Shown here piece after piece: positions 23,224 through 24,927 of a stretch of 64,000 bases of DNA; position 1 is the first letter of the stretch, and each line of letters opens with the position of its first letter. This DNA comes from an uncultured Oscillospiraceae bacterium (lineage in GTDB: Bacteria > Bacillota > Clostridia > Peptostreptococcales > Anaerovoracaceae). Location of the stretch: contig CAZTEH010000004.1 in the NCBI GenBank assembly GCA_964612345.1, positions 18,265 through 82,264 on the forward strand. The letters run 5' to 3'. Both the position numbers and the translations under genes were made by a program. The notes below the pieces were generated by a model that saw only the letters and a program-made list of their open reading frames with translations, was not told the DNA's origin and did not search any database.

Positions 23224-24927
23224 ATGATGACAGTAAAAAACCTTGGAGAACGATTCCAAAAAAAGAAAGAAAAATATATATTGAATCGAGAAATCATAAG
23301 AATATCAAATACGAGAGAGGAAAATAATACAAAGTTAATTGGAGAAGGTCAAAAAATACTTTTCGGGTATTCCTTTAACATTTATGAGCCCTGTAAAATC
23401 CATGATTTTTTATTGGCAAAATCGTTGCAACTAAGAGGAGCTACGATTAGTGCATTGGCTTGTAATGGTTTGCAAGAACTTCAATGCAGTTTTTATGGCG
23501 GAGAGTGGTCTGGATATAACAATGATTCCAAGCATGACAAGAACTTGCATGATAAGCATTGTAGATCATGCAAAAAAAATGATACTGAGATGTGGAACAA
23601 ATGGATGCATATAGAACCTGTAAAAGCTTCAGAAATGTTATCGGAATCGGATAAAAATGAAATAAAAGATTTTATCAACAAATTGGATATATCAAATTAT
23701 AAAGATTGGCAGTACAAAGGTATAAATATAGGGGAAAAAGCATTTGATGTTTACCGAAATAATTTATTAATTGCGACAGTGGAAATGGATGATAATATAA
23801 AAGAAAAACTTTCTGCAAGTTCATATAATGTTGCTCTAATGGTTGAAGCAACATCAAGAGCAGTAAAAAAAATCAAACCAGATATTATTTATTCCAATGA
23901 CAGTTTTTATTACCCTTTTTCAATTCTTGAGTGTGTTGCAAAAAACGAGGGGATTCCATTTTATAACGGTTATGGATTTGGCCGCAAAAATTGTTGGTCG
24001 TATGCCTTTAATGAATCTGTCATGTCAATTAATTTGGACAAGGCCTGGAATAGTTATAAACTTAAGCATCTCGATAAACAAATATATGATTTTATATCGG
24101 AGTATCTTGAGAACAGGAAATCTGGAAGTGACATGCTTCTGAATACAGCAGATCCATCACAAAATTCATCAAACTTATCAAATAGGGAAATTTTAAATGG
24201 GGTGACCTTCGACAGGAAGACCGCATTACTTGCATCCAATGTCGCTTGGGATTTAGCTGCCTTAAATAAAGATATCCAATTTGAAAATATGTTTGACTGG
24301 GTTATTAAAACAGCGCAGTTTTTTGAGGATAACAAGCAGTGGCAATTAGTTATTAGGGTACATCCGGGTGAAACGAATATGCATATTCCTGAGACTAAGG
24401 AAAAAGTGGCAGATGCACTGCTTAAGTTTTATGGGAATGAATTGCCTGATAACATCATCCTGATCGACAGTAATGACCCTGTTAGCACATATGATTTATT
24501 ACCATTTGTGGATATTGGATTAGTTTATACTTCAACGCTTGGAATTGAGATGGCGGCGAAAGGTATTCCGGTAGTCACATCTGGGAAATCACCCTATATC
24601 AATAAAGGGTTTACTTTCGATACTCAAAATCAGGAAGACTACTTTGTTATGATTGAGGATATTCTTGAGAGAGGAATTGATGAAAGAAGGAAAAATGAAA
24701 ATATAGAACTTGCAAAGAAGTTTTTCTACTTATACTACTTTAATTATATTATTGATATCAATTTATTTGAGTACTCAATGTTTGGACCTGTTAATTTGAA
24801 GATTAAGTCAGGAGATAGTTTGAAACCAGGTCACAACAAAACTTGGGATTATATATGTGAATCAATCATAAAAGGATTGCCAATTTTTGATGAAAATCGA
24901 ATTCCACCAAAAGAGATTAAAATCTAG
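23224..24927 (+). CDS. Capsule_synth (KpsS/KpsC/LpsZ)-like GT-B protein with Cys-rich N-terminal segment; candidate nonulosonic acid transferase
   Basis: 567 aa. The C-terminal half has QLVIRVHPGE...LLPFVDIGLVYTSTLGIEMAAKGIPVVTSGKSPY, which resembles the KpsS-family HP...S..G.EA...G.PV...G...Y pattern. The N-terminal part carries C-X10-C ... C-X2-C (ALACNGLQELQC...HCRSCKK). Assignment is by eye only. Confidence 0.4.
   Translation: MMTVKNLGERFQKKKEKYILNREIIRISNTREENNTKLIGEGQKILFGYSFNIYEPCKIHDFLLAKSLQLRGATISALACNGLQELQCSFYGGEWSGYNNDSKHDKNLHDKHCRSCKKNDTEMWNKWMHIEPVKASEMLSESDKNEIKDFINKLDISNYKDWQYKGINIGEKAFDVYRNNLLIATVEMDDNIKEKLSASSYNVALMVEATSRAVKKIKPDIIYSNDSFYYPFSILECVAKNEGIPFYNGYGFGRKNCWSYAFNESVMSINLDKAWNSYKLKHLDKQIYDFISEYLENRKSGSDMLLNTADPSQNSSNLSNREILNGVTFDRKTALLASNVAWDLAALNKDIQFENMFDWVIKTAQFFEDNKQWQLVIRVHPGETNMHIPETKEKVADALLKFYGNELPDNIILIDSNDPVSTYDLLPFVDIGLVYTSTLGIEMAAKGIPVVTSGKSPYINKGFTFDTQNQEDYFVMIEDILERGIDERRKNENIELAKKFFYLYYFNYIIDINLFEYSMFGPVNLKIKSGDSLKPGHNKTWDYICESIIKGLPIFDENRIPPKEIKI

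Follow-up and report, generated by a model that had tools for sequence, protein, structure and literature searches.

A candidate nonulosonic acid transferase in a surface glycan locus

We analyzed a gene for a 567-residue protein in a 64,000-nucleotide stretch of DNA (hereafter, the window) from an uncultured Oscillospiraceae bacterium (GenBank assembly GCA_964612345.1, contig CAZTEH010000004.1, positions 18,265 to 82,264 of the forward strand), the source genome being 4.2 Mb in size and 100% complete. An original prediction, made from the sequence alone, had placed this open reading frame (ORF) directly after a group of cytidine monophosphate (CMP)-sugar genes and an ATP-binding cassette (ABC) exporter, and had proposed it as a CMP-nonulosonate transferase related to the Capsule_synth family. 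The ORF proved to be real and to lie in precisely this position, within the following arrangement (coordinates are those of the window):

14774..21347, + strand: seven CMP-nonulosonate biosynthesis genes of the legionaminic acid (Leg) type, upstream of the 567-residue protein (TIGR04180 and TIGR04181 above cut-off; NeuB and CTP_transf_3 matches)
21383..23167, + strand: PglK/MsbA-type fused ABC exporter, candidate flippase (ABC_membrane and ABC_tran domains)
23211..23215, + strand: Shine-Dalgarno-like AAGGA, with the ATG 8 nt further on (sequence reading)
23224..24927, + strand: 567-residue GT-B protein, candidate CMP-nonulosonate (legionaminic-acid-type) transferase (ORF with ATG start)
24964..25767, + strand: FkbM-family methyltransferase, a neighbor functionally coupled to the 567-residue protein (Pfam and TIGR01444 matches)

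The Leg-type block comprises LegB (TIGR04180) and LegC (TIGR04181), both above cut-off, together with a CBS-nucleotidyltransferase (PtmE-like), a NeuD-type acetyltransferase, a 297-residue GT2-like ORF, a NeuB-type synthase and a CMP-sugar synthetase (cytidylyltransferase). For the exporter, PglK was the best NCBIfam model, with a score below the PglK cut-off. Downstream of the 567-residue protein, the FkbM methyltransferase is joined by sugar-nucleotide genes, several glycosyltransferases (GTs) of families GT2 and GT4 and an FnlABC-like set, and further on the minus strand encodes a Bac_transf initiating transferase and a 653-residue ligase of the Wzy_C type. No terminator signal above chance was found within the long block of tightly packed same-strand genes around the ORF. 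Four surface proteins with S-layer homology (SLH) domains are encoded at 1094..11802. Given these SLH-domain proteins and the glycan genes, the region is a surface glycan locus of a monoderm, with the S-layer as its probable destination.

Family membership and predicted fold

The original prediction had based its Capsule_synth assignment on the strings VIRVHPGE and YTSTLGIEMAAKGIPVVTSGKSPY, and both are found in the protein. A search with the Pfam model PF05159 (Capsule_synth, gathering cut-off 20 bits) aligned residues 365-470 at 18.3 bits (E 0.0017), while four homologues with scores of 31.1 (P0002), 26.7 (P0011), 28.0 (P0024) and 42.0 bits (P0036) passed the cut-off; homologues share 25-48% identity with the protein. 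The family likeness thus holds for the clade, through its above-threshold homologues, profile matches and fold, and is sub-threshold for the 567-residue protein alone. In a Pfam scan at E values up to 10, nothing but Capsule_synth and a chance DUF6080 match was returned; specifically, there was no match to the Maf/MptE-like domain PF01973, which was also missing genome-wide, none to TagB/Glyphos_transf, and none to the inverting sialyltransferase families GT38, GT42, GT52 and GT80, with which the protein nonetheless shares the (K/R)xHP motif described below.

Profile-based comparisons were more sensitive. A profile of 27 family members retrieved KpsC (6mgd) from the PDB with an E value of 7e-5, and hhalign aligned the family with the KpsC of E. 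coli CFT073 (Prob 85%, E 6e-6) and with the KpsS of the same strain (Prob 82-83%, E 1e-5, 121-127 columns). The family itself is large: clustering at 50% identity leaves 4088 representatives at a threshold of E<=1e-3, and 2215 under the stricter E<=1e-10. Its relatives come from Lachnospiraceae, Deltaproteobacteria, Pseudomonadota and metagenome-assembled genomes (MAGs) of Phycisphaerae; distribution in the window's own phylum is patchy (3 of 401 sampled genomes), and the source genome holds one single member.

Structure prediction pointed in the same direction. The AlphaFold (AF2) model reached a mean predicted local distance difference test score (pLDDT) of 92.1 and a predicted template modeling score of 0.92, and Foldseek returned KpsC as its top match (E 1.8e-8). 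An exhaustive VIA-align search likewise ranked KpsC first (Z 13.9, root-mean-square deviation (rmsd) 4.1 Å over 292 aligned residues), and matched WbbB of family GT99 with Z 11.4 and an rmsd of 4.9 Å over 310 residues; ordinary GT-B enzymes attained similar Z values, but at rmsds of 7-10 Å. The comparison with KpsC (GT107) that had been suggested along with the original prediction therefore yielded the best match of all. Sialyltransferases of families GT38, GT42, GT52 and GT80 were not among the best 50 matches of either fold search, which is still compatible with a distant kinship. In the ESM Atlas, the nearest cluster (template modeling score 0.88) carries the automatic name "LipB/KpsS family" and has PF05159 in 41% of its members. 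Together, these findings make it most likely that the 567-residue protein is a GT-B member of a large, unnamed clade within the KpsC/KpsS/WbbB/KpsS1 superfamily of CMP-ulosonic-acid transferases.

Within the protein, we delineated the following features:

23341..24213, + strand: N-terminal Rossmann-like (acceptor) domain, residues ~40-330 (secondary structure of the models)
23461..23571, + strand: Cys4 cluster C80, C88, C113 and C116, putative structural zinc site (sequence; set-wise conservation)
24238..24252, + strand: N339-V-A-W-D343, counterpart of QxxxD, with D343 as predicted nucleophile (conservation and hhalign)
24355..24372, + strand: R378-V-H380-P381-G-E383, predicted CMP-binding motif of the (K/R)xHP type (conservation and hhalign)
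24529..24549, + strand: T436-S437-T438-L-G-I-E442, predicted CMP phosphate/ribose loop (the stretch best conserved with KpsC in the 6mgd profile match)

Conservation of a predicted catalytic signature

Retaining CMP-ulosonate transferases such as KpsC, WbbB and KrkA (families GT107, GT99 and GT140) share a set of active-site elements: a QxxxD motif, in which the Asp becomes covalently bonded to the sugar and the Gln binds the carboxylate; a (K/R)xHP motif for holding CMP; and a Ser/Thr pair together with a Glu for binding phosphate and ribose (PMC10148158, PMC12887879). We counted the conservation of the corresponding positions in an alignment of 165 family members. R/K378, H380 and P381 are each present in all 165, and E383 in 160. 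The hhalign alignments set R378-V-H380-P381 on K192-V-H194-P195 of KpsC and on K-H-H-P of KpsS, and N339-VAW-D343 on Q233-VYN-D237 of KpsS. D343 is nearly invariant (162 of 165, the other three having Glu), and N339 is kept in 154 members. In the third element, position 436 is Thr or Ser and position 437 Ser or Thr across the family, with E442 retained in 160 of 165 sequences. The spacing between the Asp and the His of these motifs amounts to 37 residues in the 567-residue protein, compared to 34 in KpsC and KrkA.

As an aside on numbering, the HP-motif histidine encoded by CFT073 kpsC (L023 6743-8770) is H194, within K192-V-H194-P195; the "His94" in the discussion of PMC10148158 probably means His194.

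Gene neighborhood and genome content point to a nonulosonate donor

To relate the family to a donor sugar, we compared 15 loci, which do not constitute a census: seven came from an exact-protein look-up (25-48% identity), six from species-representative genomes and two from the window's phylum. With the window's NeuB as query, a NeuB homologue was detected within 10 kb of the family member in 14 of the 15 loci, and a CMP-synthetase homologue in ten. The chance of meeting NeuB in a random 20-kb stretch is about 1% per locus, given two NeuB genes in the 4.2-Mb genome. The complete source genome contained neither LpxC nor a KDO8P synthase scoring above cut-off; for the latter, the top match reached 110 bits against a cut-off of 314 and resembles a DAHP-synthase paralogue. 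[quoted passage not shown] The remaining GTs of the locus match no known sialyltransferase, Maf or TagB-type family, in agreement with the original prediction, so the 567-residue protein is the only credible nonulosonate transferase of the locus. The proposal that it uses a CMP-nonulosonate donor is thus supported by its PF05159 family, the KpsC-like fold, the motifs, the NeuB-containing loci and the absent Kdo pathway.

A cysteine cluster that is gained or lost as one unit

The N-terminal domain spans ~290 residues and includes a helical insertion of roughly 115 residues (102-217) that carries the Cys4 cluster. An unusual cysteine pattern had been noted in this region, as C-X10-C followed by C-X2-C. 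Four cysteines indeed lie within the DNA range originally given (23452-23584) and include the C-x2-C pair, but the actual spacing is C-x7-C-x24-C-x2-C rather than C-x10-C. In the AF2 model (pLDDT near 90 in this region), C80 follows strand beta-2, C88 is part of the loop that comes next, and a long helix (102-127) bears C113 and C116.

Among the 165 aligned members, 132 have all four cysteines, 21 have none and 12 are partial, so that in 153 cases the set is either complete or absent altogether. On a tree built without the four Cys columns, the all-four and none states are separated by at least nine independent switches. This set-wise pattern, together with the repeated switching, indicates that the four cysteines are gained or lost as one unit, and the cluster's behavior is compatible with the metal site that had been considered possible. 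Members lacking the cluster have Leu, Tyr, Val and similar residues at the four positions; replacement of a structural metal site by a small hydrophobic core is the usual pattern. Probably, the four residues form one structural Zn(Cys)4 site, which is the natural reading for a cytoplasmic enzyme, the identity of the metal being our inference. As 13% of members do without the cluster, a catalytic role is unlikely. In fold comparisons, the isolated N-terminal domain model matched only generic Rossmann/GT-B N-domains (NeuC and MurG at Z ~9-10) and class-I tRNA-synthetase/cyclodipeptide-synthase-like folds, overall with Z ~8-10, and no relative of the zinc site was found among them.

A methyltransferase that recurs as neighbor and fusion partner

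The FkbM methyltransferase adjoins the family member in 9 of the 15 loci and is fused to the C-terminus of six homologues, in independent fusion proteins. Four of these (P0024, P0031, P0054 and P0060) have the architecture (TPR)-transferase-FkbM, in which TPR denotes tetratricopeptide repeats. P0056 (also L010:7585-11586; 1334 residues) continues with a GT4 domain, as TPR-transferase-FkbM-GT4, and P0057 (1583 residues) reads TPR-transferase-FkbM-radical SAM-GT2. In the window, the separate genes follow the same order as the fusions, namely 567-residue transferase, FkbM, SDR and GT4. Fusions and adjacency are good evidence that the transferase and the FkbM methyltransferase act on the same glycan end. 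A complex prediction for the 567-residue protein and its FkbM neighbor gave a score of 0.00, which speaks neither for nor against direct binding.

A degraded version of the pairing was seen in one Lachnospiraceae MAG (L013 11590-11892), where the FkbM gene beside the homologue is itself shortened to 101 residues, probably by a frameshift or as a pseudogene. Separately, in gut Lachnospiraceae, homologues (P0004, P0011 and P0016; L002 10001-21914) carry an extra N-terminal C2185-like_N domain (PF22674), which is also fused to two Methyltransf_24 proteins and one GT2 in the L002 locus and may be a shared docking or assembly domain.

Proposed mechanism and alternatives

Considering homology, fold, motif conservation, gene neighborhood and the absent Kdo pathway, we judge it likely that the 567-residue protein is a CMP-nonulosonate transferase of the retaining kind, with a lipid-linked glycan as its acceptor; donor, acceptor and retaining stereochemistry are inferred. 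In the proposed scheme, the cytoplasmic enzyme would take a CMP-activated 5,7-diamino nonulosonic acid of the legionaminic-acid type, supplied by the seven upstream genes, and add it to an undecaprenyl-linked glycan built by the locus. By analogy to KpsC, WbbB and KrkA, CMP would be held at its cytosine and phosphate by R378, H380 and P381; T436 and S437 would bind phosphate, E442 ribose and N339 the sugar carboxylate. Attack of D343 on C2 would link enzyme and sugar covalently. This adduct would be resolved by an acceptor hydroxyl that a base in the N-terminal domain activates, so that the anomeric configuration would be retained. The Cys4 cluster in the helical insertion would serve as a structural zinc site and be dispensable for the chemistry as such, and the adjacent FkbM methyltransferase would work on the same glycan end. 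The PglK-like exporter would then flip the finished glycan, and the Wzy_C-type ligase would transfer it, probably to the SLH-domain S-layer proteins whose genes lie close by.

Several observations weigh against this assignment. The protein itself misses the PF05159 cut-off (18.3 versus 20 bits), NCBIfam and PDB sequence searches with it alone gave no matches, and the sequence likeness to KpsC and KpsS is confined to ~100-127 columns of the C-terminal domain. Its motif is NxxxD where the known families have QxxxD, and its N-terminal domain, of full size and with a long insertion, contrasts with the reduced one of GT99 and GT107. The best conserved acidic positions of this domain, D/E61 (145 of 165) and D/E220 (144 of 165), are base candidates, of which none is assignable. 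Two further points concern the donor. Because a second CMP-nonulosonate module, of the pseudaminic acid (Pse) type, is present in the genome on contig C62, the Leg-type donor is assigned by operon adjacency only, and because the Leg pathway of the locus lacks LegG, the exact nonulosonic acid is uncertain. Finally, we found no paper on the ~560-residue clade and no characterized member in the literature searched, a search that was itself incomplete.

Some of these features bear on stereochemistry. An enzyme with the same donor and fold could be inverting, like those of GT38/42/52/80, with D343 binding substrate or acting as a base. The substitution of Asn for the Gln of QxxxD and the unreduced N-terminal domain would fit such an enzyme, and the (K/R)xHP motif is common to inverting sialyltransferases and retaining Kdo transferases (PMC12887879). 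However, hhalign places NxxxD exactly on the QxxxD of KpsS, the Asp is nearly invariant, and the closest structures are those of retaining enzymes, KpsC and WbbB, rather than of sialyltransferases, so that inversion appears unlikely.

A different acceptor is very unlikely. In this case, the nonulosonic acid would be attached directly to Ser/Thr of an S-layer protein or flagellin, as by Maf or FlmG, instead of to a lipid-linked oligosaccharide. TPR repeats, a common protein-recognition module, are found at the N-terminus of several relatives, SLH-domain surface proteins are encoded just upstream, and the genome has no Maf. Yet the 567-residue protein lacks TPR repeats, all characterized relatives (KpsC, KpsS, WbbB, KpsS1 and KrkA) use glycan or lipid acceptors, and the locus encodes a complete lipid-linked route, comprising the Bac_transf initiating transferase, several GTs, the PglK-like flippase and the Wzy_C-type ligase.

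We consider it highly improbable that the protein is some other GT-B enzyme, such as a transferase for CDP-alcohols or NDP-sugars, or that it hydrolyzes or modifies CMP-sugars and simply accompanies nonulosonic acid genes. The fold searches also gave scores for generic GT-B enzymes and UDP-GlcNAc 2-epimerases, and the clade has no characterized member in the literature searched; against this stand the far larger rmsd of generic GT-B folds (7-10 Å versus 4.1 Å for KpsC), the invariance of the CMP-specific (K/R)xHP motif, the lack of any TagB/Glyphos_transf match even at E 10, and the consequence that the locus would then have no candidate nonulosonate transferase at all. A beta-Kdo transferase using CMP-Kdo like KpsC and KpsS, suggested by the closest solved structures and the Pfam family, was rejected and is close to refuted, as the complete genome has neither a Kdo pathway (no KDO8P synthase above cut-off) nor LpxC, and NeuB accompanies the homologues in 14 of 15 loci.

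Building on the proposed retaining CMP-nonulosonate transferase, we also considered a more far-reaching model, which is tentative and on balance doubtful. Here, the transferase, the fused or adjacent FkbM and the neighboring GT4 would form a conserved cap module, in which an O-methylated nonulosonic acid finishes the Gram-positive S-layer glycan and thereby decides chain termination and readiness for PglK-type ABC export, with the Cys4 zinc insertion as a docking surface for the acceptor or a partner. If true, this module would be the monoderm counterpart of the Gram-negative O-antigen terminators WbbB (beta-Kdo cap) and WbdD (methyl-phosphate cap).

Comparison with known systems

KpsC (GT107), known from E. 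coli and Thermosulfurimonas dismutans (PDB 6MGB, 6MGD, 6MGC, 8FUW and 8FUX), is the best match both structurally and by PDB profile. The two share the K/R-x-H-P motif, the TS..G.E loop and an Asp that follows the opening strand of the C-terminal domain. KpsC differs in its CMP-beta-Kdo donor, its poly-Kdo/lipid acceptor, its reduced N-terminal domain, its QxxxD motif and its lack of a Cys4 site.

The published case nearest in function is KpsS1 of Acinetobacter baumannii (GT118), described in PMC12887879 (citing Walklett 2024) as a retaining Pse5Ac7Ac transferase that is of the Capsule_synth type and shares ~30% identity with E. coli KpsS. KpsS1 shows that the superfamily includes a CMP-nonulosonate transferase whose gene lies beside the biosynthesis genes of its sugar; for the comparison, its relative E. 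coli KpsS was aligned in its place. When KpsS1 was sought among homologues of E. coli KpsS, only close KpsS proteins of enterobacteria were retrieved. That the superfamily handles nonulosonic acids is thus established, and the idea behind the original prediction is less new than implied, since a Capsule_synth-type Pse transferase had already been published. In the alignment with E. coli KpsS, the matched columns include QVYND/NVAWD and K-H-H-P/R-V-H-P. KpsS-type proteins measure ~400 residues, compared to ~560 in the clade of the 567-residue protein with its larger N-domain, and have Ser where that clade has Glu (E442); the enterobacterial KpsS proteins in our alignment showed no Cys4 cluster.

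[quoted passage not shown] As one of the retaining CMP-ulosonate transferases, WbbB caps a glycan ahead of its export by an ABC transporter (PMC12887879). In contrast to the reaction proposed here, it transfers Kdo onto O-antigen in a Gram-negative bacterium, and no sequence-level match to the 567-residue protein was obtained.

Finally, Tanf_01245 and TFUB4_00887 of Tannerella forsythia are genetically proven transferases of Pse/Leg derivatives in the S-layer O-glycan (PMC5420450). They do the same job, with a gene just downstream of the CMP-Pse/Leg genes, an HP motif and a product on S-layer glycoproteins; in the Leg version, only a methyltransferase lies between the transferase gene and the CMP-Leg genes (PMC5420450). 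These proteins, however, are shorter (442-445 residues) and of a TagB/GT-B type. As the 567-residue protein has no TagB/Glyphos_transf match, homology was rejected and the likeness is one of functional analogy, not of family membership.

Implications

What is new relative to these systems is the NxxxD motif, the large size of the N-domain and the conserved, modular Cys4 site within it, the recurrent FkbM fusion and the monoderm S-layer context. Although legionaminic and pseudaminic acids are widespread on bacterial surfaces, few of the enzymes that join them to glycans have been identified. As the clade is large and nearly always found beside NeuB (14/15 loci), a single characterized member would inform the annotation of hundreds of nonulosonate loci, and would offer a new tool with which to make Leg/Pse glycosides chemoenzymatically, possibly with the anomeric configuration retained. 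If the proposed mechanism is true, the covalent double displacement of KpsC and WbbB reaches a new branch with NxxxD and a zinc-stabilized acceptor domain, and the step that places the acidic terminal sugar on the S-layer glycan of this organism has been identified. The assignment is of use for annotation and as an enzymology target, and would not surprise a specialist.

Additional observations on the locus and genome

In the Leg-type block, the 297-residue GT2-like ORF (18691-19584) occupies the slot in which the hydrolyzing 2-epimerase LegG would be expected. It has a weak Pfam GT2 match and no NCBIfam match, and weak homologues (27-29% identity) occupy the same slot in two other loci (L003 and L009).

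The Pse-type module on contig C62 (L029 1-13238) encodes two DegT aminotransferases, a PseG-like Glyco_tran_28_C protein, a GNAT, a WbqC, a NeuB (319 bits), a CTP_transf_3 protein and a radical SAM protein, and contains homologues of PseC, PseG, PseH, PseI and PseF. A 521-residue protein of this module, which belongs to no Pfam family, was examined as a paralogue of the 567-residue protein and found to be unrelated (hhalign Prob 0.1%); its nearest ESM Atlas clusters are unnamed, with weak hints of PMT_2/Glucos_trans_II membrane GTs.

Downstream of the transferase, a trio at 28061-30425 consists of a 154-residue cupin-like ORF, a DegT aminotransferase and a class I methyltransferase. It travels with close homologues in eight loci from different phyla (50-64% identity for the aminotransferase), which suggests a transferable module making an N-methylated amino-deoxyhexose alongside the nonulosonate; the amino sugar may be part of the acceptor. 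Elsewhere in the window, a 406-residue protein (46274-47497, minus strand) carries two outer-membrane-efflux-protein (OEP, TolC-like) repeats, in a genome that lacks LpxC and apparently has no lipopolysaccharide outer membrane.

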